Below, piece after piece: positions 1,497-39,350 of a stretch of DNA of 39,458 bases. The notes below the pieces were generated by a model. The model ran no database searches, was not told the DNA's origin, and was given only the letters and a program-made list of their open reading frames with translations. Every line of letters begins with the position of its first letter. Within the stretch, counting starts at the first letter, position 1. The DNA comes from a virus (Duplodnaviria; Heunggongvirae; Uroviricota; Caudoviricetes), in the IMG/VR virus record IMGVR_UViG_2698536397_000026. One strand, written 5' to 3'. The position numbers and the translations under genes are program-made.

Positions 1497-3587
1497 ATGT
1501 ATGTCATTGCAAAAGAACTGATTGGCGCGCCCGGAATGCCTGCTACAACAAAAGGTATTCGCCAGGCATTACAACGTTACGTACAAGGGAAAAGCTGTTG
1601 TTCCCGTCGTCGCTCAGGCTCTAAAGCAACTGAATACAGCATCGACTGTTTACCTGAAGTGACGCAGCAGGCATTACGTGAACGTTATGCCCTGCAACTG
1701 ATGACGCAAAAAGCCGATGAATCACCGGCTCCGGTGGTGACAAAGGCCAGACGCTCATCTGACGTGGTTGATGCGGTGGAGGCATATCGCGGATCACCAC
1801 AACTGATGGTCGAACGCCTCAATGCCCTGACTGAAAACCAGCGCCAGGTGGCTGATGCACGAATCGCGATCGTCAGCGAAGTGATGAAAGTCGCGCAACA
1901 ACCCGGTTTCAGCTGCGCGAAAGCTATCCGGTTTATCGTTGACAACCTGGCACGTTCGCAACTGGACGAGCGCATTGTGGCAATGGTTGAGACGGCGAAC
2001 GCCAAAAAGGGAAACAGCCGTGCGTTGAGTGAAATAACGCTGAAACGCTGGATTGCGGCCTTTAACAAGGCGCAGAACGCCGCTGAACGCCTGCTTTTAC
2101 TGGCACCGGGTAAGCGCCAGGAAATAAAAGCCGAAGATATTAACTGGCTGCCCGAATTTCTGGCGCAGTATCGCCAGTCAAACGGCCGACCAATGACCGA
2201 GGCTTACGAGGATTTTGTCGCTGAATGGCAGCACCGGCACGCTGATGAGCCTTATATGCTCGATATCATGCCGTCTTATGACACCATTCGCCGCGCAATG
2301 AAGAAACTGCCGGAAGTGGTGAAACAAAAAGGCCGGGTGACCGGCAGTGAATACCGCCAGCTTGAGGGATTCACGCGCCGCGACTGGTCAAAAATGCCGG
2401 TGAATTATGTCTGGATTGGTGACGGTCACGGCATGAAGCTGAAATGCGCACACCCGGTTCACGGTCGGCCATTTGCACCGGAAGTGACCTTTGTTATCGA
2501 CGGTGGCACGCGCTTTGTGGTGGGCTGGAGCCTTGACCTGGCTGAAAATGTTTTCGCCGTAGCCGGTGCCATACAGCACGGCATTCGCCATCACGGCAAA
2601 CCGTTTCTGTATTACTCGGATAACGGCTCCGGGGAAACCGCCGACATCCTGGATAAGGAGGTTGTGGGGATACTGCCGCGACTGGGGATTAATCACCCGA
2701 CCGGGATTGCCGGTAATCCGCAGGGACGAGGCATTATCGAACGGCTTAACCGCACATTACCGATGCGCATAGCCCGTAAATACCGCACCTATTTCGGGAA
2801 AGGTGCAGATCGCGAGACGTTACGCAAAACCAACCGCGATTTACGCTCGGCATTTACTGCCCTGCAACAGGGCAAACGGCTGAACGCCCGGCAGCAGTCA
2901 GCGATGCGTGATTTACCGTCCTGGTCTGAACTGATTGATGCCATTCGTGACGGTGTTGAGTGGTACAACAACCGGCCGCACGATGAATTACCGGTGAAGC
3001 CGAACGGCAAGCATTACAGCCCGGCGGAGTTCAGAAAAAAACGCCTGGCGGAAGAGGACACGGAAATTGAATGGCTGTCCGATGTTGAGCTGCGGGATAT
3101 GTTCCGGCCGATGGTGGAACGCCCTGTAAGACGCTGTGAAATACGCTGGCTGAATAATATTTACTACGCGCCCGAGCTGCGTGACGAGCATGGTCGTAAG
3201 GTGCTTATCAGCTATGACATTCATGATGCCGAACGAATTACCGTACGTCGCCTGGATGGCAGCGTGATTTGCGAGGCGGTATGGGACGGTAATAAACGCG
3301 AAGCCTTCCCGGTTAGCGCGGAATACTACAAACAGCAGCAACGCCTTAAAGGCATGCGTAAACGCGCAGAGGAAAAAATCCGTGATGCCGAGGATGAGGT
3401 TGTCAACGTGCTGGAGCACAAGCCGCAGGAGCCCTGGCTGGAAAACATATACCGCCCTGTGGGTAATACGGTGACCGTTCAGCAACCGGTCGCTGACGAT
3501 GAACCTGATGAAGAATACGAGCGTAATTTCCAGCGGGGATTGCAGTTGCTGGAAGCGAAATTAAAAGAAAATGACCCGCTGGCCTGA
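1497..3587 (+). CDS. A: Mu-type DDE transposase (MuA-like)
   Basis: 696 aa, second gene of early operon, start overlaps ner stop (TGATATG); size and position as MuA. Confidence 0.85.
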   Translation: MYVIAKELIGAPGMPATTKGIRQALQRYVQGKSCCSRRRSGSKATEYSIDCLPEVTQQALRERYALQLMTQKADESPAPVVTKARRSSDVVDAVEAYRGSPQLMVERLNALTENQRQVADARIAIVSEVMKVAQQPGFSCAKAIRFIVDNLARSQLDERIVAMVETANAKKGNSRALSEITLKRWIAAFNKAQNAAERLLLLAPGKRQEIKAEDINWLPEFLAQYRQSNGRPMTEAYEDFVAEWQHRHADEPYMLDIMPSYDTIRRAMKKLPEVVKQKGRVTGSEYRQLEGFTRRDWSKMPVNYVWIGDGHGMKLKCAHPVHGRPFAPEVTFVIDGGTRFVVGWSLDLAENVFAVAGAIQHGIRHHGKPFLYYSDNGSGETADILDKEVVGILPRLGINHPTGIAGNPQGRGIIERLNRTLPMRIARKYRTYFGKGADRETLRKTNRDLRSAFTALQQGKRLNARQQSAMRDLPSWSELIDAIRDGVEWYNNRPHDELPVKPNGKHYSPAEFRKKRLAEEDTEIEWLSDVELRDMFRPMVERPVRRCEIRWLNNIYYAPELRDEHGRKVLISYDIHDAERITVRRLDGSVICEAVWDGNKREAFPVSAEYYKQQQRLKGMRKRAEEKIRDAEDEVVNVLEHKPQEPWLENIYRPVGNTVTVQQPVADDEPDEEYERNFQRGLQLLEAKLKENDPLA

Positions 3588-4593: not shown

Positions 4594-4815
4594 ATGGCGG
4601 TATTTAATATTCCTGATATTTACGGACGCTTTTACCTGGTTAATTTCGATAACGTGAAGGTGATTTCACTGGCCGAAAATAAAGAATGTGGCGATTTACT
4701 TTTTGAATTTAATGACCGCACACGAATGGTGATATCTGCCGGACTTGATCGCGAAGGTGCGACAGACGTTTACAGCGGAATATGCCGTTCTGTTGGTGCG
4801 AAACAAGTCAGCTAA
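4594..4815 (+). CDS. hypothetical early protein (74 aa)
   Basis: ORF overlapping B stop (GTGATTATG); start at ATG 4594. Confidence 0.5.
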   Translation: MAVFNIPDIYGRFYLVNFDNVKVISLAENKECGDLLFEFNDRTRMVISAGLDREGATDVYSGICRSVGAKQVS

Positions 4816-4827
4816 ATGAGGTGTTAT

Positions 4828-5082
4828 ATGAATATGCAATCCTGCGGTAACAAAATGAATTTATTCGACTCCCTGAACAGCGCGCGCCGTCTGACCGAAC
4901 TTGCCGGTGCGGTACTGGAACGCAGTAAGCGCTATCCGCAACGTTTTGCACTGAAAACCACGCCGCCGGTAGGCAACGTGCAGGGAACCGGTGAAATTGA
5001 AATCACCATACAGACCAACGGCCTGCGCCGCCGTGTGAAGGCCACCCGCATCAGCGGCTGCACGGTTTACTGGGAGGTGTGA
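4828..5082 (+). CDS. hypothetical early protein (about 84 aa)
   Basis: ORF with GAGGTG RBS before ATG 4828 (track start 4816). Confidence 0.5.
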   Translation: MNMQSCGNKMNLFDSLNSARRLTELAGAVLERSKRYPQRFALKTTPPVGNVQGTGEIEITIQTNGLRRRVKATRISGCTVYWEV

Positions 5083-5083
5083 G

Positions 5084-5365
5084 GTGAAAAAAAATCTCAT
5101 TGCATGGGCGTGGTCGAGTGGTCTTATTGAGTTTGGTTACGTCCTGCCGGAAGGTGCATTGCCGATAGTTGCCGGAAAGCCTGCCACGGTACGGCATGTG
5201 ATTGAGGTTATGGCGCGTCATGGACGTGATGAACAGGAGCAGTTACTGGTTCCGGGGATACCGGAAGCGGTGACGGAGGAAGAAGCCTTTAATGCCATGA
5301 TTCGGTTCTGCCGTGAGGTCAGACGCCGGGTCAGTTATCCAAACAGAACGAGGACCAGAGGATGA
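5084..5365 (+). CDS. hypothetical early protein (93 aa), GTG start
   Basis: GGGAGGTG RBS, GTG start, tight packing with neighbours. Confidence 0.5.
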   Translation: MKKNLIAWAWSSGLIEFGYVLPEGALPIVAGKPATVRHVIEVMARHGRDEQEQLLVPGIPEAVTEEEAFNAMIRFCREVRRRVSYPNRTRTRG

Positions 5366-5634
5366 GTAAAGTCGTACGCATTATTTTCGAATACAAGGAG
5401 CACGTTATCCATAAAAACGCTGATGGAACAGTGCGCATGGGGGTAAGTCTGGACATACGTTCAACCGGGATAAAGCAGAAAGGTGATGGACCCGCCATGA
5501 TTTTTGGGGTGGTTATGCTCGCGGAAAGCAGAGACTTTGCTGAACTTGTGGCAATGAAAGCCAGTGCGCTCATGAAAGATATGAGCATGCGTTCCGGGGT
5601 TATTAAAGGTAATGAATTTAATCAGCAGGGGTAA
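5362..5634 (+). CDS. hypothetical early protein, paralog 1 (90 aa)
   Basis: ATGA overlap with upstream gene; N-terminus MSKVVRIIFEYKEHVIH paralogous to next gene. Confidence 0.55.
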   Translation: MSKVVRIIFEYKEHVIHKNADGTVRMGVSLDIRSTGIKQKGDGPAMIFGVVMLAESRDFAELVAMKASALMKDMSMRSGVIKGNEFNQQG

Positions 5635-5638
5635 TTCC

Positions 5639-5932
5639 ATGAGCAAAGTACGCGTTATTTTTGAATTTAAGCATGTTTCGCATGACGAAAAACCGGCAGG
5701 CAATGACTGTGTTGAAGTGCATGAAAAGATTGGTGTGGATGTAAAAACAGAACGTGATACGAATAACAGGCCGACGTCACTCTGTGACGTTTATGCAAGT
5801 ATTCTCCAGTATCACAGTCCTGAAATTATTCAGTTTCTCTCAGCGGAATTTCAGGCATCTGTACAGGCTTTTGGGGCGGATGCCATCATTAAACGCCACC
5901 GCGTGCATAAAGCATCAGGCACACTGCAATAA
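5639..5932 (+). CDS. hypothetical early protein, paralog 2 (97 aa)
   Basis: N-terminus MSKVRVIFEFKHVSH; RBS AGGGG; start at ATG 5639 (track start 5612). Confidence 0.55.
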   Translation: MSKVRVIFEFKHVSHDEKPAGNDCVEVHEKIGVDVKTERDTNNRPTSLCDVYASILQYHSPEIIQFLSAEFQASVQAFGADAIIKRHRVHKASGTLQ

Positions 5933-5943
5933 GGAAAAACAAA

Positions 5944-6474
5944 ATGGCTAAACGTGTTACAAAATTAAAGGCCGCAGCCGAGGCTGCACCGCAGACCCGC
6001 GAAGAAGTCAGCCGCGATATCCGTACCCTGGGCGATATTCAGCGAGAGGCGCTGCGGCTGGAAACGGCGATGAATGATGAAGTGGCAGAAATCACCGCCC
6101 GTTATACGCCGCAGATTGAAAACCTTAAAAAAGAAATCAAAGTGCTTTTTAAGGGGATTCAGGACTGGTGCAAAACCAACCGCGATGAGCTGACGAACGG
6201 CGGCAAAACCAAAACAGCCAATCTGACCACCGGAACAGTGTCATGGCGGCTGGGAAATCCATCATGCAGCGTCAGCCGTGATGTGGAAGGTGTGATTGAA
6301 ATGCTGCGCCGTATGGGGCTTGAGCGATTCATCCGCACGAAAGAGGAAGTGAACAAGGAAGCGGTCCTGGCGGAGCCGGATGCAGTGAAAGGCATTGCCG
6401 GTATTAAGGTGAATAAAGGCGCTGAAAGTTTTTATGTCGAGCCTTTTGAACAGGACGCCGGACTGAATAAATAA
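5944..6474 (+). CDS. gam: Gam-like host-nuclease inhibitor (Mu Gam / Ku-like DNA end binding)
   Basis: 176 aa; MAKRVTKLKAAAEAAPQ... with TANLTTGTVSWR and FIRTKEEVNKEA segments resembling Mu Gam as I recall it; located in early region. Confidence 0.7.
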   Translation: MAKRVTKLKAAAEAAPQTREEVSRDIRTLGDIQREALRLETAMNDEVAEITARYTPQIENLKKEIKVLFKGIQDWCKTNRDELTNGGKTKTANLTTGTVSWRLGNPSCSVSRDVEGVIEMLRRMGLERFIRTKEEVNKEAVLAEPDAVKGIAGIKVNKGAESFYVEPFEQDAGLNK

Positions 6475-8169: not shown

Positions 8170-8721
8170 ATGATGATTTTACAACCCATGGGGCGAAAAG
8201 GTCAGGCACCTGCTCATGTCCGTGCGTGGACACCTGAAGAAGATGCGCTGCTGATTGCGCTTTATCCATCCACCCCGGTTAAGGATATTGCTGTCAGGGT
8301 AAAAAGAAGTTTCTGGGGTGTACATAACCGGATTGTTTTATTACGCGGTACTTACCCGGAGTTGCTCAAATGCAAACGTCCAAGATTTAAACATGATGAA
8401 GATAAATTTATCCGAAAAAATGCCAGAACGATGACCGGTAAGCAAATAGGAGAATATCTGGGGCGAGACCGGGATTCTGTCCACAATCGGGCGCGATATA
8501 TTGGCGTAAGCATGAAAAAATACGGAGAATTGCTGCCCTTCACCCGTATACCTGACGATGATGTTCATCTTATTCGTGAATTACGGGATGCTGAATCACC
8601 ACGACGTCTTACCTTCCGGGAAATAGGCGAGAAATTTGAATTATCCGAGAGTACGGTGAATTTTATTTATCACCATCGCCGGACTGCCGAGGACGCTGTA
8701 TTACGGGAGTTAACGCCATGA
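8170..8721 (+). CDS. hypothetical early protein with three internal HTH-like repeats (183 aa)
   Basis: Three about 45-aa repeats each beginning with an acidic triplet (EED / DED / DDD) and containing a helix-turn-helix-like segment (two with SVHNR / GVHNR). Confidence 0.5.
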   Translation: MMILQPMGRKGQAPAHVRAWTPEEDALLIALYPSTPVKDIAVRVKRSFWGVHNRIVLLRGTYPELLKCKRPRFKHDEDKFIRKNARTMTGKQIGEYLGRDRDSVHNRARYIGVSMKKYGELLPFTRIPDDDVHLIRELRDAESPRRLTFREIGEKFELSESTVNFIYHHRRTAEDAVLRELTP

Positions 8722-8903
8722 TAAAGAGACTTGTATTTTTCGCAATTTTCGTTCCGGTGTTGGGGGTTGGTTTTATATTTGCGATTACAGGAAACCTGTC
8801 CATGATGCCAGATATTTGGTTCTTTATCAGGATGTCGCTCTTCCTGTTTATTATGAATCTTCTTATCGACATATATATCCGTATTACTGGAAAACATAAA
8901 TGA
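8718..8903 (+). CDS. small membrane peptide (61 aa, two predicted TM helices)
   Basis: ATGA overlaps on both sides; hydrophobic FFAIFVPVLGVGFIFAI and FFIRMSLFLFIMNLLI. Confidence 0.45.
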   Translation: MIKRLVFFAIFVPVLGVGFIFAITGNLSMMPDIWFFIRMSLFLFIMNLLIDIYIRITGKHK

Positions 8904-9274
8904 GAAAAATCACGTCCTTGTCAGAGTTACAGGAGATGAATATGAGTATTGAATTAAGATCGTCTTATGAGTATCGCAAATTTCTTATCGCCGGAGGCAT
9001 GAAACCGGAAGATGTGGAAAAAATCGTTTCTTTTATGGATAAGGAATGTGATAAGCGGGATGTGTCAGAAATTATTATGGATGACATGATTCTGGATTCA
9101 GTCGTGGCGTTAAGTCCGTTATGGATTGTGCATTCTCTTGCGGAAATTGCCAAAGGCACCGATAAACAGGCAGCTGTTGCTGCCCTTCAGACGCTTAATG
9201 AAATGCGTATATCTCCACGCCCGACATTAATACAGATGATTTTGTCCAGTATGGAGGATAAAGCAAATGAATAG
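8900..9274 (+). CDS. hypothetical early protein (124 aa)
   Basis: ORF translationally coupled to neighbours. Confidence 0.5.
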   Translation: MRKITSLSELQEMNMSIELRSSYEYRKFLIAGGMKPEDVEKIVSFMDKECDKRDVSEIIMDDMILDSVVALSPLWIVHSLAEIAKGTDKQAAVAALQTLNEMRISPRPTLIQMILSSMEDKANE

Positions 9275-9464
9275 TCTACCCGCTGGATGGGCGCGCCCTC
9301 TGATGGCTAAGAAGCATCATTTTTTTAAAACTGGCGATAATATCAGTATATGTAGGCGGTGGTTATATCTGGCTCATAATCGCGAGCCGGATACATTTGA
9401 AAGCCCTGATGACTGTGCCGAATGTCGCAGAAGACTGAATAAGGAGAAAGATAATGGACAATAG
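9267..9464 (+). CDS. small Cys-containing protein (65 aa)
   Basis: ORF overlapping neighbours; C-terminal CAEC pair. Confidence 0.4.
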   Translation: MNSLPAGWARPLMAKKHHFFKTGDNISICRRWLYLAHNREPDTFESPDDCAECRRRLNKEKDNGQ

Positions 9465-9750
9465 TTCTCTGTTGTTCTGGTGCTTATATATCACATCCTT
9501 TTTCGGCGCATTTGTTATTACCCGGTGGTTATGTCGAAAAATCATCTGCTTTTTTGATAAAAGACATCCGGTTGAACGGGCGGCTGATGCGCTCATTCAG
9601 CAGGCCATTGTGTTATATAGCGGTGAATTTTTCTGCCGGATAACAACCAGAGATGGCTGGCACATAATGATTATTCCACCAACACACCATGCCCGGTGGG
9701 ATGAGGCAGAAAAGGCTTTCCATGTCCGTAAAAAGGTAAATACGGTATGA
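9454..9750 (+). CDS. hypothetical membrane-anchored early protein (98 aa)
   Basis: N-terminal hydrophobic LLFWCLYITSFFGAFVI; ATGA overlap with gemA. Confidence 0.5.
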   Translation: MDNSSLLFWCLYITSFFGAFVITRWLCRKIICFFDKRHPVERAADALIQQAIVLYSGEFFCRITTRDGWHIMIIPPTHHARWDEAEKAFHVRKKVNTV

Positions 9751-10256
9751 GAGGAAAACTGATATCCGCCATTCATGTGGCAAAGCGCGAGCTTGCCCTG
9801 GATGATGAGACTTATACATCCGCGCTGCTGGCAGCCACCGGCAAAACCAGCTGCCGGGATATGTCACCGGATGAGTTATCCCGCGTGCTGGATGTTTTCA
9901 AAAAACGCGGTTTTAAAGTGCGTCAGAACCCGGTTAACCGGGCCTTAAAACCGGGTACGGTGACCGCCAAAATTCGCGCCATCTGGAAGGTGATGCACCG
10001 GCAGGGCTTTATCTCTGATGGTGCGGAAACCGCCCTTAACCGCTGGGTGAAATCGCAGACGGCCGCGCAAAACGGCGGCGAAGGTGTGGCAAACTGGCAG
10101 TGGCTGGAGCAACACCCCGCCCTGGCCTCAGATGTGCTGGAGCGTCTCAAGCGATGGCACCGCCGCAAAATGCTGGCCGCGATGGGAATGCCCGAACGCA
10201 CGCTGATGGGGTATGACGCCGTTTGCAGGCAGTATGAAAAATCACTTCCCCGTTAA
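9747..10256 (+). CDS. gemA: GemA / Mu gp16-like regulatory protein
   Basis: 169 aa, last gene of early operon; N-terminal IHVAKRELALDDETY...TGKTSCRDMSPDEL pattern typical of GemA family as I recall it. Confidence 0.65.
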   Translation: MRGKLISAIHVAKRELALDDETYTSALLAATGKTSCRDMSPDELSRVLDVFKKRGFKVRQNPVNRALKPGTVTAKIRAIWKVMHRQGFISDGAETALNRWVKSQTAAQNGGEGVANWQWLEQHPALASDVLERLKRWHRRKMLAAMGMPERTLMGYDAVCRQYEKSLPR

Positions 10257-10260
10257 CTCC

Positions 10261-10290
10261 AAATCCCGCCACAACGCGGGATTTTTATTT
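10261..10290 (+). terminator. rho-independent terminator ending the early operon
   Basis: AAATCCCGC-CACAAC-GCGGGATTT hairpin followed by TTTATTTT. Confidence 0.65.
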
Positions 10291-10325
10291 TAAACTTACC
10301 GGGAACGCGAGAACCGGAGGCTGAT

Positions 10326-10751
10326 ATGGCAGAAACTCAGATGAGCATGTTTGGTGGTGACAGTGAGCAACTGCACGCCCTTATCGACCGCCTTGATGAC
10401 ATCCCTGATGATGTTCTCAAAAAGAACTGGCCGCGGACCCTGTCAGAACTGGTTGAAGTCACCGGCGCAGAACTTCAGCGTCAGGGGATTGAGCCGGTAC
10501 TGGCCGGTAAACTGGCACGCAAGGTGGCTGCGGCTCAGGCAGCCTATATGGGCGGACGGGGTTATTACCTGCCGGTCGGGGAATCTCTCTTTGCCGAGCT
10601 GCGAAACAATGAGATATTTTCGCGCTGGGACCGGGGCGAGAAAATTGAATCCCTTCGCCGCCATTACCGGATGTCAGAAACCCAGATTTATACCGTCATA
10701 CGCGAACAGCGCCGTCTGCATCTGGCAAGAACGCAACCGCCACTTTTCTGA
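10326..10751 (+). CDS. Mor/C-family transcriptional activator (middle/late gene activator)
   Basis: 141 aa; C-terminal HTH region and ending ...QPPLF, similar to Mu Mor / C proteins as I recall them; own RBS GGAGG after terminator. Confidence 0.7.
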   Translation: MAETQMSMFGGDSEQLHALIDRLDDIPDDVLKKNWPRTLSELVEVTGAELQRQGIEPVLAGKLARKVAAAQAAYMGGRGYYLPVGESLFAELRNNEIFSRWDRGEKIESLRRHYRMSETQIYTVIREQRRLHLARTQPPLF

Positions 10752-10822
10752 TATTCCGCAAAGCCTGCCGCCTCTCCTTCACCGTTACGCTGACTCAGAG
10801 AACATCATGAGACAGCGTAACA

Positions 10823-11323
10823 ATGCCAAAACTCCCCGCACCACTGCGTAAAAAGCTGATTGCCCTTGTTCTGGCCGGTGCCGGGACGTTCACGATTGCC
10901 ACGCATTACACCGGTTACTGGGAAGGGAAAGAAAACTCCACGTATATCGATCCCACCGGTACACCCACCATCTGTTACGGCCATACCGGCCCGGATGTGA
11001 AACCGGGTATGACCCTGACAGATGAAGAATGCCTGGAACTACTGGAAAAGGACATGAAATGGGCCTTTGCGGCCATTGATCGGCGTGTTCAGGTGCCGCT
11101 TACCCGTGGTCAGACGGTGGCGCTGGCTTCGTGGATCTTCTGGGCCGGTGAAACGAACTTTCGCAACTCCACGCTTCTGCGCCTGATCAATGCCGGGCAG
11201 ATGCCCGCGTCCTGTAAGCAGTATATCCGCTGGATTTATTCAAAGGGGGTGAAACTCCCCGGCCTTGAGGCCCGCCGTTCGGCGGATGAATGGTTATGTC
11301 GCTACGACTTGCCGAAAGTCTGA
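10823..11323 (+). CDS. lys: endolysin, T4-lysozyme-like (GH24), probable signal-anchor-release (SAR) type
   Basis: 166 aa; hydrophobic N-terminus LIALVLAGAGTFTIA followed by YWEGKENSTYIDPTGTPTICYGHTG lysozyme catalytic region. Confidence 0.8.
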   Translation: MPKLPAPLRKKLIALVLAGAGTFTIATHYTGYWEGKENSTYIDPTGTPTICYGHTGPDVKPGMTLTDEECLELLEKDMKWAFAAIDRRVQVPLTRGQTVALASWIFWAGETNFRNSTLLRLINAGQMPASCKQYIRWIYSKGVKLPGLEARRSADEWLCRYDLPKV

Positions 11324-11396
11324 ACCGCTTCTGGCGACCGCTCATGATAGCGCTGCTGTGTGCGGTACTGCTGTTACGGGGTGTCCTGTGGCTGCG

Positions 11397-11786
11397 GTGA
11401 ATAATGCCTTACCGGCCCTGATTGCCGGGGCGTGCATGGCGGCGCTGGGGATTATCGCTGTACTGGTTGCCGCTATATGGGGAATGCACCAGAAGACGCA
11501 GCGCCTTGAAGACAATAATCAGGTGCTTGTGCGTGAGCGGGATGAGGCGCGTCAGGTGCTGGCAAATCAGCAGCACACCCTGCAACTCATTTCACAAATC
11601 AGTGAGGCGGCCACGAATGAAAAACAACAGAACATTCAGCACAGCGAGGGGCAGCAGAGCGTTGTCCGCCGGTCGCTGGCGGCAGTGCCTGCGGCCTCTG
11701 CCCCTGTTCCTGATGATGTGGCTGATCGGGTGCGCCGGGCCGTCTGTGAAATACGTGCCTGTGAAGCCGGTGCCGATCCCCGCTGA
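11397..11786 (+). CDS. i-spanin (Rz-like), GTG start proposed
   Basis: N-terminal TM segment LPALIAGACMAALGIIAVLVAAIWG then coiled-coil-like periplasmic region; directly after endolysin. Confidence 0.55.
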   Translation: MNNALPALIAGACMAALGIIAVLVAAIWGMHQKTQRLEDNNQVLVRERDEARQVLANQQHTLQLISQISEAATNEKQQNIQHSEGQQSVVRRSLAAVPAASAPVPDDVADRVRRAVCEIRACEAGADPR

Positions 11787-11998: not shown

Positions 11999-12226
11999 AT
12001 GGATGATTCAGATCGTGCTCAGGCTGTGATGGAGCGGGGATCAGAACGCGCCCTTTGTAACCGGCTGACACGTAAGCGCCGGGCAATGGATGCTCCGGGC
12101 AGACGTGTCTGCGCGGACTGTGGCGGAGAGATCCCCGCCGCACGTCTTGTTGCTGTGCCGGATGCCATCCGTTGTGTGAACTGCCAGAACATCATGGAGG
12201 CCCGTCATGTGGGTCAGCATCGTTAA
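11999..12226 (+). CDS. TraR/DksA-type C4 zinc-finger protein (75 aa)
   Basis: CADCGGEIP...RCVNCQ four-Cys motif; RBS AAGGAAAAAGG; start at ATG 11999 (track ORF starts 11933). Confidence 0.6.
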   Translation: MDDSDRAQAVMERGSERALCNRLTRKRRAMDAPGRRVCADCGGEIPAARLVAVPDAIRCVNCQNIMEARHVGQHR

Positions 12227-17954: not shown

Positions 17955-18075
17955 CGGTCAGTGGCGGGGGTCGAACCCGCATACATGATCCACCCGGAGG
18001 CAGGCACCGACTTTACCAGTTAAGCGTACACTGACCGCCTGTTTATTTTATATTCATCCTTTATGCGGAGGCAAT

Positions 18076-18549: not shown

Positions 18550-18725
18550 TTGTTTAAGGTATGCAAATGCATTACCTTACCCCCTTCAGGCGCGTGTCGT
18601 GATTTTCTAACCTGAATTTAACGGGCTTTAAAATCTGCGTGAAGCGCCTTTGTATTTTTCCCCTGAAAGCACTTCCTGAAATCCCGCAAAACCCGCCCTG
18701 AAAATTCCCGGCTTATGCTGCCGGA

Positions 18726-34823: not shown

Positions 34824-36881
34824 ATGAATATTATGACGTCCAAATGGGTTCAACTATCATCAATGCCCGGAAACTTTACCGTTAAAGTTTCCGGTGGTAC
34901 AGCGGCATTTCTTGAGGCTCCCTTTCCTCCTGCTGAAACGAAAGGAGGAATGACATTTGCTGACTGTCTCATCAGTTTTAATACACAGGATTGCCTGTGG
35001 GTAAGGCCAGTATCCGGTGATCCGAACGTGGAAATTACCGGAGCGGGTATTGGTGCTGTCATTCCGTTAAGTGCTGATGTTGCCGGTACTACTGAACCGT
35101 CAGACTGGGATAATGCAGAAACACATACCCGTCCGGCAGGAAATGAAACTGCTTCCAGCTCCCCTTCCTGGTATTACGTGATTGTTATAGCCGGCCAGTC
35201 CAATGCTTCATCTTATGGTGAAGGGTTGCCCCTTCCGGATTCTTATGATCGTCCTGATCCACGTATTATGCAGCTGGCACGCAGGAATACACAAACCCCC
35301 GGAGGTATTCCCTGCAAATACAATGAAATCATTCCAGCAGATCACTGCCTTCATGATGTTCAGAATATGAGTCTGCTGAACCATCCAAAAGCAGACCTGA
35401 AAAAAGGGCAGTATGGTTGTGTGGGGCAGGGACTTCATATTGCGAAAAAAGTATTACCGGTGATTCCTGCTGATGCCGGGATTTTACTGGTTCCCTGTGC
35501 CCGTGGCGGCTCTGCTTTTACAACCGGCGCAGTTGGCTCATTCGATCCGGCAAGTGGTGCAGCCGAGGCGTCACTACGCTGGGGAGTGGATACCCCACTG
35601 TATCAGGATCTTGTCAGTCGAACTAAAGCGGCACTTGAGGCGAATCCAAAGAATGTGCTGTTATCTGTCGTATGGATTCAGGGGGAAGGAGACCTTAAAG
35701 CGACCCCGGCCCAGCATGGTGCCCAGTTTACTGCGATGGTGAAAAAATTCCGTGCGGATCTTGGTGCTTTCTCCGGTCAGTGTATTGGTGGTTCATCAGA
35801 CAGTGTGCCGTGGTTATGTGGTGACACAACCTATGACTGGAAAGAGAAGAACCCGGCGGCATATGAAACCATTTATAGCGGATATAAAAACCGGGCTTCC
35901 GAGAACATTCACTTTGTTCCACTGATGCACGATGAGTTCGGTAATAAAACCGCGACCAACCTGCCGGAGCACGACCCGGATATCGCTTCTGCCGGGTATT
36001 ATGGTGCGGAATCACGGGGAGATGGCAACTGGACAACAGCATCCAGGGCAACCCATTTTAGCTCCTGGGCGCGCCGTTTTCTGGTCTCAGATCGTTTTGC
36101 ATCAGCAATTCTTAAATATGCAGGTCTGACCTCTGCATTTATTGCCGGTGTGGCCCCTGATGGTGAAGCCCTGCCTCAGCCCGCGCCGGGTGGGAAACCG
36201 GAAGCGCCGACAGGTAGTCAGCCAGGAGGCAGTGAGTCCCCCCATCCGACATCCCCGTCACTCCGTACGCTGCTTTCACTTAAAGCATCAGCAGGAGAAG
36301 CCCCGGCTCAGGGCTGGAAAATTACAGATGGTACAATCCAGCTGACGGACGAAGGTAAAGCGTTGACCGTATCCAAACAAAGCGGAAAAACCTGGACGCT
36401 TACCCATGGAACTGATGCAGCCGGTGAACTTCTGAAGCATGGTGGTCAGTTGACCTGTAAATTCCGTCTGTCAGGTGAAGTAAAAGAAGGCCAGTTTGCT
36501 CTGGGTATTTACCTCCACACCGATACGGTCCCGGAAGGTGTAACCATGAGTGGTACAGGCACACCGTTCCTGATGGCGTATTATCTCCAGACAACAGGCG
36601 GCCAGTTAAATCTGATGCACCATAAAACAGGGGGGAATACGAAACTGGGATCATTTGGAGCCTACAATAACCAGTGGCATACACTTGTCCTGAAGTTTAC
36701 GGCGGGAAGTGCCCAGGTAACGCCTGTGCTGGATGGCACTCCGGGCCAGGCATTCCAGATGGTGAAAGATGCACTTTCCCCTGCCAAAGATACGCTGACA
36801 CTGACAGATGTCACCAAAGGGGCAACTTATGGCGTGTCTTTTGAGAGCGTTGTCCTTGAGGTTAATACCCCTGCGGCATAA
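34824..36881 (+). CDS. SASA/SGNH-family carbohydrate esterase (sialate O-acetylesterase-like) with Pro-rich linker and C-terminal beta-sandwich/lectin-like domain; cargo gene
   Basis: 685 aa; block I IAGQSNASSYGEG, block WIQGEGD, no N-terminal signal peptide; Pro-rich linker PQPAPGGKPEAPTGSQPGGSESPHPTSPS; not part of the Mu gene set. Confidence 0.65.
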   Translation: MNIMTSKWVQLSSMPGNFTVKVSGGTAAFLEAPFPPAETKGGMTFADCLISFNTQDCLWVRPVSGDPNVEITGAGIGAVIPLSADVAGTTEPSDWDNAETHTRPAGNETASSSPSWYYVIVIAGQSNASSYGEGLPLPDSYDRPDPRIMQLARRNTQTPGGIPCKYNEIIPADHCLHDVQNMSLLNHPKADLKKGQYGCVGQGLHIAKKVLPVIPADAGILLVPCARGGSAFTTGAVGSFDPASGAAEASLRWGVDTPLYQDLVSRTKAALEANPKNVLLSVVWIQGEGDLKATPAQHGAQFTAMVKKFRADLGAFSGQCIGGSSDSVPWLCGDTTYDWKEKNPAAYETIYSGYKNRASENIHFVPLMHDEFGNKTATNLPEHDPDIASAGYYGAESRGDGNWTTASRATHFSSWARRFLVSDRFASAILKYAGLTSAFIAGVAPDGEALPQPAPGGKPEAPTGSQPGGSESPHPTSPSLRTLLSLKASAGEAPAQGWKITDGTIQLTDEGKALTVSKQSGKTWTLTHGTDAAGELLKHGGQLTCKFRLSGEVKEGQFALGIYLHTDTVPEGVTMSGTGTPFLMAYYLQTTGGQLNLMHHKTGGNTKLGSFGAYNNQWHTLVLKFTAGSAQVTPVLDGTPGQAFQMVKDALSPAKDTLTLTDVTKGATYGVSFESVVLEVNTPAA

Positions 36882-37844: not shown

Positions 37845-38014
37845 GTTTTCACCACCTAACTCTTCGTTTCTTTAAGTAAATAATCACCGCCCTGAATCAT
37901 TGTTGATGACTTTTAAATCTATTTGTTGTATCAATTAAACAAATCGAATCGATCGTTTTTGTCGATCGATTGCATGAGAAAGGCATCAACAACAAAGCAG
38001 GAGGTTATGCGGCC

Positions 38015-38215
38015 ATGTATCGAAACATACGGTGCCGACACTGCAATAAGCTACTGGCACGGGCCAGTTTCAGTTATCTGGAAGTAAAATGTCCGCGCTG
38101 TAAAACCCTCAATCAAATCACATCTCCGAGCGCCACAGAGCACCCCACATACACAAGGAAATCCTGTCGTGGGGAACAGAAAGCAAGTCACATCCCGTAT
38201 CATCAGCACGCCTGA
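38015..38215 (+). CDS. com: Com-like zinc-finger translational activator of mom
   Basis: [30 protein letters not shown] closely parallels Mu Com zinc finger as I recall it; RBS AGGAGG; overlaps downstream mom-like ORF. Confidence 0.8.
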
Positions 38216-38906
38216 ACTTATTCGCTATAACGACAATATCGTTGGTTATGGCTCCCGTGAGTTGCGGGTTGAGACAATAAGTTGCTGGCTGGCCAGACTG
38301 GTTATCGTCAATAAACATTACAGCCACCGTTTCGTAAATAATTCCTACCTTCATCTGGGTATATTTTCAGAACGGGAACTTGTTGGCGTAATGCAATGGG
38401 GTTACGCCCTTAACCCAAACAGTGGTGCACGCGTCGTAACGGGTACGCAGAACCGAGAATATATGGAGCTTAACCGGCTATGGATGCATGACTGTATGCC
38501 GAGAAACTCCGAATCAAGGGCAATCAGTTACGCGCTCAAGCTAATCAGGCAGCTTTATCCGCAGGTACAGTGGGTTCAGTCGTTTGCAGATGAGCGTTGT
38601 GGCTGTCTTGGTGTCGTGTATCAGGCAAGCAATTTTGATTATGTAGGCAGCCATGAATCAACATTCTATGAACTTGATGGCGAGTGGTATCACGAGATTT
38701 GCAGGAGTGCCATTAAACGAGGCGGACAACGAGGTGAACATCTGAGGGCTAATATCGACAGAGCCAGTGTGCATAAGTTCCGACAGTTTCGTTACATCCG
38801 GTTTCTGAACAAGAGGGCCAGAAAACGCCTCAACACAAAGCTATTCAAAGTCCAGCCTTACCCAAAACCACAAACAGTTAAAACTGGTTTGAAAGAGAGT
38901 GAATGA
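38169..38906 (+). CDS. mom: Mom-like DNA modification protein; start codon uncertain
   Basis: 245-aa ORF overlapping com 3' end, last gene before right end, exactly as Mu mom; track start is GTG. Confidence 0.65.
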
Positions 38907-39036: not shown

Positions 39037-39350
39037 ACCCGAGCTGGAAGCATCATCCAGAGCCCTCATGAAACGACTGTAACAGCTGTTGAAAAACCGG
39101 AATGCACTCTTCATTGCAAACATTTCAGGGATGAAGTGAAGATGAATTGAGACGTAGTATCCACATCAAGCCGGCGTTATCCGGTGAGGCGCAATGTTGC
39201 GGGGGCTTTATCCCTGGTGGCATTGGTTGCTGGAAAGAGAAAACCCCCGCACGTTGAGAGGTTTAACCTGACAACAGAACGGGGGCTAATCTTGAACCAG
39301 AACAATTCAAGAATAGCCGCAAAATGTTGTCATTACAACAAGGCGGCTAT

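Follow-up and report, generated by a model that had tools for sequence, protein, structure and literature searches.

A single C-type Mor/C-family activator gene behind the early-operon hairpin of a Mu-like prophage of E. coli

Between its early and lysis genes, a Mu-like prophage of E. coli encodes what is, as far as sequence methods can see, its only Mor/C-family transcription activator, which by similarity and position is an orthologue of Mu C rather than of Mor. We consider it fairly probable that this single C-type activator replaces the three-tier, Mor-then-C cascade of Mu, in a circuit that would combine a terminator after gemA, a weak promoter of the activator's own and/or read-through, and conserved boxes at late promoters; a cascade without Mor is the simplest reading of the evidence assembled below.

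The stretch of DNA analysed (39.5 kb; hereafter, the window) is a Mu-like prophage sitting in comEC of E. coli, in which the repressor gene is followed by ner, A, B, small early genes, gam, gp11-like and gp12-like genes, gemA, the activator gene and genes for lysozyme, spanins, terminase, head, tail, invertase, com and mom (Table 1). The segment from 9700 to 11400, which contains the activator gene, was covered to at least 80% in 231 of 5,426 complete E. coli genomes (~4%); 155 of the 232 records matching it were at least 99% identical, O157:H7 strains among them, and an annotated copy (NZ_CP027459) was 100% identical across the segment.

Table 1 Features of the window discussed in the text, with coordinates, strand and supporting details.
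Feature	Coordinates	Strand	Details
gemA, last gene of the early operon	9747..10256	+	PF06252 GemA, 4.1e-30; 43% identity to Mu GemA; 'gp16 family protein' in NZ_CP027459
Intrinsic-terminator-like hairpin	10261..10291	+	Terminator scan; AAATCCCGC-CACAAC-GCGGGATTT at 10261-10284, then TTATTTT (T-rich tail); perfect 9-bp stem AAATCCCGC/GCGGGATTT with 5 G-C pairs; 6-nt loop CACAAC
Candidate −10 hexamer TAAACT (P_act)	10291..10296	+	−35 position GCCACA inside hairpin, 3/6 matches; putative function
Ribosome-binding site GGAGG	10316..10320	+	Read off the sequence; 5 nt before ATG at 10326
Single Mor/C-family transcription activator, Mu C orthologue by similarity and position	10326..10751	+	141 aa, 16.2 kDa; PF08765
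Candidate Plys-like late promoter	10748..10791	+	22-bp box CTGATATTCCGCAAAGCCTGCC (10748-10769) overlapping activator stop codon; −10 TACGCT 10786-10791; no −35
Lysozyme gene (lys equivalent), first late gene	10823..11323	+	PF00959, 6.3e-37; 39% identity to Mu Lys
TraR/DksA-type C4 zinc-finger gene	11999..12226		PF01258, 5e-12; phrog_54
RefSeq 'tRNA-OTHER'	17955..18034	−	Annotated in a near-identical copy; between head morphogenesis genes
Candidate PI-like late promoter	18676..18719	+	Box CTGAAATCCCGCAAAACCCGCC (18676-18697); −10 TATGCT 18714-18719; no −35; upstream of head protease gene at 18726
Gene for 685-aa protein, after invertase gene	34824..36881		Sialate-O-acetylesterase-like domain (PF03629) and DUF6645
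com and mom	38015..38906		com, PF10122; mom, PF25680, 8.5e-77
rdlD	39238..39303	−	Full-length Rfam match, 87.6 bits against a gathering score of 50, E 2e-17

Membership of the activator in the Mor/C family was evident from a match to the Pfam Mor profile spanning positions 2-107 of 107 (2.8e-32, 111.3 bits; cut-off 24.9) and from its size and charge. Proteins of this family are small, at about 100-150 aa, and are acidic in the N-terminal half but basic in the C-terminal half (PMC2582627); the window's protein has 141 aa, with its two halves at pI 4.75 (N-terminal) and 9.97 (C-terminal). It also retains the β-strand linker GG..Y.P.G as G76, G77, Y81, P83 and G85 (G70, G71, Y75, P77 and G79 in Mu C); G76, Y81 and P83 were invariant and G77 at least 90% conserved in a 51-sequence alignment, and G85 was invariant in a 12-sequence alignment. 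Within the family, BLASTP identity to Mu C was 39% over the full length (4e-35) versus 27% for Mu Mor (3e-14), the match to C in the PDB (1.1e-26) was far stronger than that to Mor (2.1e-9), and the best PHROG was phrog_532, 'late transcriptional activator' (3e-45). The gene does not occupy the position of a Mor gene (before the early terminator and overlapping gemA), lying instead downstream of the hairpin and 69 nt past the gemA stop; its position is that of a C gene, directly upstream of lys, with a candidate C-type promoter in the 71-nt gap that separates its stop codon from the lysozyme gene. Because of these identities, the PDB scores, the PHROG family and the position upstream of lys, we read the lone activator as a C orthologue and not as Mor.

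That no second paralogue is present follows from searches with several methods. An HMM of 148 diverse Mor/C family members, drawn from a search of 1.8 billion proteins, was run against the six-frame stop-to-stop segments of the window, down to a length of 25 aa, and had the segment 10257-10748 as its sole match (1.6e-50; next best, E 1.2), whereas the same HMM recovered both C (1.6e-49) and Mor (4.3e-35) in Mu. Pfam searches of ten ORFs of the early and lysis regions returned no further Mor/C gene, and hhalign comparisons of 20 small ORFs with a 51-sequence Mor/C profile reached a probability of at most 3.6%, a top score that fell on a generic helix-turn-helix (HTH) stretch of the ORF at 8170-8721. 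The first-pass annotation had described the activator as the only Mor/C gene visible in the window, had proposed a profile-profile check of the early ORFs (the hhalign comparisons above), and had named 8900-9274 and 9267-9464 as small early ORFs that might turn out to encode a Mor homologue; these two have no Pfam match and belong to unrelated PHROG families of unknown function, and the single-activator claim stands. A hidden second Mor/C gene in the window is thus ruled out by Pfam, the six-frame HMM, hhalign and PHROGs, and neither the window nor the related loci described below contain a Mor gene on which a middle promoter could depend.

The same searches bear on the idea that a three-tier cascade is kept with a different protein in the place of Mor, that is, that a non-Mor early protein activates the activator's promoter. 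The main candidate is the product of 8170-8721, an early-operon gene without a counterpart in Mu, which has a C-terminal HTH (weak Pfam HTH matches) and falls in phrog_323, 'transcriptional regulator' (6e-59). The gene is, however, missing from relatives that have the hairpin, the −10 hexamer and the activator as a module (L003/L038, L034, L035 and L040), and its likeness to the Mor/C profile is the 3.6% generic HTH match just mentioned. A non-homologous middle regulator would lie beyond the reach of sequence searches; as an account of this phage, we regard a hidden middle regulator as very improbable.

To place the single-activator layout in a broader context, we compared 40 related loci (39 from a viral-contig collection and one from an Edwardsiella genome), in which identity to the window's activator ranged from 100% down to 44%. 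All 40 had exactly one Mor/C match within ±6-10 kb. The order gemA, activator, lys, spanins and TraR/DksA-like gene is kept among them, with the hairpin between gemA and the activator gene, and across lineages this hairpin is conserved either directly after gemA or directly before the activator gene. The TraR/DksA-type gene, which lies amid the lysis and late genes, was present in all relatives examined and has no counterpart in Mu; its product may be an RNA-polymerase-binding modulator of late transcription.

The hairpin lies within the 69 nt that separate gemA, which stops at 10256, from the activator start codon at 10326. Its predicted RNA fold (−13.5 kcal/mol) is considerably more stable than those of shuffled sequences (−4.5 ± 2.0; z −4.4), and it was the only strong, and the longest-stemmed, terminator-like site found on the + strand from the start of the early region to 12119. 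The terminator scan itself is poorly selective (33 sites found versus 22.6 expected), so the weight given to the hairpin comes from its stem length, its intergenic position and its conservation in relatives. Stem sequence was kept while loops varied in relatives whose activators are only 44-57% identical, and in at least eight further lineages the activator gene is immediately preceded by the same stem with different loops. Across 13 lineages the stem pairs were essentially invariant, with no compensatory changes or covariation, so the case for selection on RNA structure is one made from thermodynamics and conservation. Both the rho-independent terminator that had been read after gemA and the ribosome-binding site that had been assigned to the activator gene were confirmed as sequence features, the former by its stem, T run, fold and position and the latter by GGAGG at the expected distance from the ATG. 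Most early transcription would end at the hairpin.

Conservation of the stem at the sequence level could also mean that it is a protein-binding dyad, and as a control for this we scanned viral contigs for the pattern AATCCCGC-N6-GCGGGATTTT. It occurred in at least 117 viral-contig loci, including at least 79 distinct contexts with no Mor/C gene nearby. Given this wide distribution, the hairpin sequence is a common terminator design and no signature of this system, which weakens the idea of the hairpin as a specific operator of the activator. The hairpin is also an insertion hotspot: in relative L024 an IS4-family transposase gene (4595-5932) lies inside it, with the left arm replaced, and in two other relatives cargo genes are found between two hairpin copies (L018, where these genes are on the opposite strand, with copies at 2570-2600 and 3290-3320; L040, 5371-5400 and 5925-5955).

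With a terminator upstream, the activator gene needs either read-through or a promoter of its own. The candidate −10 hexamer at the end of the hairpin, TAAACT, is a 4/6 match to the −10 consensus in the window's lineage, weaker than its equivalents in relatives, and it was not flagged by a promoter scan of the window. At the homologous position, 7-9 nt past the stem, relatives carry TATAAT, TATACT, TATATT or TATAGT. Matches of at least 5/6 to TATAAT followed the stem in 10 of 15 distinct Mor/C contexts versus 9 of the 79 other contexts of the same hairpin, and the five exceptions among the Mor/C contexts all belong to the window's own lineage, with TAAACT at the homologous place. Moreover, hairpin and hexamer stay with the activator gene where other DNA separates it from gemA, as with opposite-strand cargo genes (L018), an IS4-family element (L024) or further insertions (L025 and L040). 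Because a −10 hexamer is enriched in Mor/C contexts and the module stays attached to the activator gene despite insertions, a promoter of the gene's own that overlaps the terminator is probable, with the G+C-rich stem occupying the −35 position. An alternative geometry, modelled on Mu Pm with the hairpin centre at −43.5, was rejected: the transcription start would fall inside the ribosome-binding site and the −10 on AACGCG.

The same observations bear on a leaner alternative, in which the activator and lysis genes are served only by early transcripts that pass a leaky terminator, the −10-like hexamer arose by chance in the A+T-rich tail and expression rises as the prophage replicates. An ordinary terminator design, a weak TAAACT with 3/6 matches at −35, the silence of the promoter scan and the lack of any terminator between the activator gene and lys (terminator scan) are all compatible with this alternative. 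On the other side, perfect or 5/6 TATAAT hexamers stand at a fixed distance past the stem in at least five separate relative lineages, far more commonly than after the same hairpin elsewhere, and hairpin and −10 remain with the activator despite opposite-strand genes or an IS element after gemA. We find pure read-through doubtful as a full explanation.

Several relatives have LexA-box-like sequences in the leader that runs from the −10 to the start of the activator gene; the window's lineage lacks them. Those of L050 (about 6400-6470; CTGTACAAACGATCAG), L070 (about 5345-5410; CTGTATAAAAGATCAG) and L071 (about 2130-2195, − strand; CTGTATGTTTGATCAG) fit CTG-N10-CAG, and a further LexA-like sequence was seen in L038 (about 5950-6000; CTGTATAAACGATCAT). 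The LexA-like leader sequence of relatives also contains GATC. Such boxes could place the late activator of those relatives' phages under SOS control.

Two candidate late promoters were recognized in the window, one upstream of lys and one upstream of the head protease gene, the latter in the place of Mu PI, between G-like and I-like genes. In both, a 22-bp box starts exactly 38 nt before a TAYGCT hexamer (start to start). The box consensus, CTGAWATYCCGCAAARCCYGCC, was derived from the two sites themselves; allowing three mismatches brought up no further match in the window (0 expected by chance). Aligned with relatives, the canonical core is AAARCC (AAAGCC in the Plys-like promoter), 23 nt from the −10; the corresponding elements are AATCC at 24 nt in relatives and CATAA(C/T)CC, 24 nt upstream of the −10 and without a −35, in Mu's four late promoters. 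In −35-less late promoters, the site bound by Mu C is a dyad with its centre at −43.5 (PMC2582627), whereas the window's box looks like a tandem 9-bp direct repeat and not a clear dyad. The activator protein is predicted to bind and activate at the two candidate boxes, and the lone activator most likely turns on the late promoters directly.

Searches of the window with strict and loose patterns yielded no convincing counterparts of Mu PP and Pmom, though the window has both com and mom; one weak box, ATAATCACC at 37880, was set aside, as it lies 30 nt from TAAATC, the wrong spacing. The 9-mer AWATYCCGC has 13 matches on both strands of the window, compared with 1.8 ± 1.4 expected from shuffles (largest, 6), for example at 3092, 4775, 5843, 7287, 12268, 13578, 15120, 22713 and 25021. 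Most of these copies fall within coding regions, on one strand or the other, and have no suitably spaced −10, so they were not counted as sites. A second hairpin was observed in relatives L034, L035, L038, L040, L041, L050 and L078, where it lies within the 60-100 nt that follow the activator stop and before the Plys-like box, with conserved flanks AACCGGCTG...CGGGTTG. Its inner stems covary (GCGCT/AGCGC, GGCCT/AGGCC, GCCTT/AAGGC and others) beneath a tetraloop C(C/G/A)AG, and it resembles the Mu terminator after C (AACCGGC...GCCGGTT), except that it has no clear T run. The window lacks this post-activator hairpin; its box overlaps the activator stop codon instead.

The likeness between hairpin arm and late box raises the alternative of a self-activating switch, in which the hairpin DNA would be an operator for the activator, a Pm-like promoter would be driven by its own product, and a trickle of read-through would flip a positive feedback that replaces the Mor step. 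The arm AAATCCCGC (at 10261-10269, 10276-10284 on the − strand, and 18679-18687) also forms, unchanged, the upstream portion of the PI-like box; the distance from the left arm AAATCCC of relatives to TATAAT or TATACT is 25-26 nt, only slightly more than the 24 nt between the AATCC core and the −10 in their own Plys-like promoters; and in L041 both the activator and the Plys-like promoters carry CTGACATA...AATCCC(C)GCCA. Mu itself offers a parallel, in that as annotated, the terminator after mor (9179-9200) sits inside Pm (9163-9233) and the Mor dyad, which spans −51 to −36 (PMC4287176), falls by our own placement on the left arm of that hairpin. Because the window's candidate promoter has no −35, it would depend on an activator, and the prophage has no second Mor/C protein to play that part. 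Against self-activation, the hairpin sequence is a common terminator design and no specific operator, as at least 79 distinct phage contexts have it with no Mor/C gene nearby; the geometry misfits in the window, where AAATCCCGC is 27 nt from TAAACT, the 9-mer is 32 nt from the −10 in the prophage's own late promoters and the canonical core is 23 nt from it; and hairpin arms and late boxes showed no lineage-specific co-variation beyond the AATCC core. We consider a self-activating switch possible but unlikely. More speculative still is a dual-purpose hairpin, whose RNA would end the early operon while its DNA arm AAATCCCGC serves as the operator of a self-activated promoter that in some relatives is also held off by LexA through a CTGTAT-N6-ATCAG leader box; this combination seems to us a rather dubious one.

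Returning to the single-activator circuit that we favour, we start from the observed sequence features, the family and orthology of the activator, the absence of a second paralogue and the conservation of the layout. Early transcription would run from the left end through gemA, and most of it would stop at the hairpin and T run. The next gene, which encodes the phage's only Mor/C protein, would then be expressed by residual read-through and/or from the weak −35-less promoter overlapping the terminator, a mode of expression that we infer from sequence; such a promoter would be the positional counterpart of the hairpin-after-mor/Pm module of Mu. The activator would bind the conserved boxes just upstream of the −35 position at the lys and head protease promoters and recruit host RNA polymerase there, as Mu C does. 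Because no terminator separates the activator gene from lys, the transcription unit for lysis and head genes would in effect have the activator gene as its promoter-proximal member. The first-pass annotation had suggested a simplified one-step cascade from the presence of a single activator; the simplification is upheld by the absence of Mor and the lone C-type activator, but 'one-step' overstates the case, given that the gene lies behind a terminator and probably has its own promoter. With the activator gene insulated from early transcription in this way, an intermediate stage may persist by other means.

Other features of the window lie outside the activator region, in which an Rfam scan found no match. 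Nothing in Mu corresponds to the 685-aa protein encoded after the invertase gene; this protein may be a tail-associated enzyme or the product of a cargo gene. The DNA-modification module at the right end has been exchanged between two otherwise near-identical prophages: NZ_CP027459 (L002, 38061-39267) has Com and a DNA cytosine methyltransferase in place of mom, and tblastn found nothing in the window that matches the methyltransferase. The far right end, downstream of mom, contains a match to rdlD, which is the RNA antitoxin in an Ldr/Rdl type I toxin-antitoxin pair. The 'tRNA-OTHER' annotated by RefSeq between head morphogenesis genes is probably a degenerate tRNA-like remnant; neither ARAGORN nor Rfam detected a tRNA in the window.

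Together, these results suggest that the textbook Mor-then-C cascade of Mu is the exception, and that the widespread relatives sampled here manage with one C-type activator, with the consequence for annotation that such genes are better read as late activators than as 'Mor'. They bear on how late and lysis genes are switched in Mu-like prophages of Shiga-toxin-producing E. coli, and the conserved terminator with its overlapping promoter offers a testable place for how one activator times the switch from early to late expression.

Among described elements, the window is the same kind of E. coli Mu-like prophage as Sp18 of E. coli O157:H7 Sakai; many Shiga-toxin-producing and O157:H7 genomes carry copies of the window's activator region with at least 99% identity, and the window's likeness to the Sakai copy is one of kind. 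Sp18 was described as intact and as not induced by mitomycin C, and its regulatory cascade is not discussed in the paper that describes it (PMC2669165).

Relative to Mu, where the order is gemA, mor, a terminator hairpin overlapping Pm, genes 18-20, C, a terminator, Plys and lys, the window (gemA, hairpin, C-like gene, Plys-like promoter, lys) corresponds to Mu minus mor and genes 18-20. The two C-type proteins share a Pfam family, 39% identity, the GG..Y.P.G linker and a C-terminal HTH region, and both genes lie directly upstream of lys. The targets of Mu C, like the window's candidate promoters, lack a −35 and combine a −10 with an A-rich/CC box that precedes it by about 23-24 nt, although Mu has four late promoters and only two counterparts were found in the window. 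Mu C comes at the end of a middle operon under the Mor-dependent Pm, behind genes 18-20 and ahead of a terminator; the window's gene, by contrast, directly follows the early terminator, with no Mor, no hairpin before lys and a tandem 9-bp repeat as its box. Mu mor lies upstream of the terminator and overlaps gemA, whereas the window has no Mor and its activator is only 27% identical to that protein. In Mu Pm, a terminator hairpin at the end of the early operon overlaps a −35-less promoter that drives C, and the window's hairpin and TAAACT stand in the same position.

The closest published parallels in layout are the Mannheimia phages 3927AP2 and phiMhaMu2 and the Haemophilus parasuis phage SuMu, in which lys directly follows a single mor-like gene and a separate middle gene C was described as lacking (PMC4553209). 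As in the window, these phages have one Mor/C gene after gemA and the early genes, lys next and no separate middle operon. They differ in having other hosts and low sequence similarity, and their gene is labelled mor, whereas similarity favours C here; no promoter or terminator analysis was reported for them (PMC4553209). The single-activator layout is thus real but common in Mu-like phages and already in print (PMC4553209), and what the window and its relatives add is the activator gene's probable promoter, overlapping the terminator that closes the early operon.
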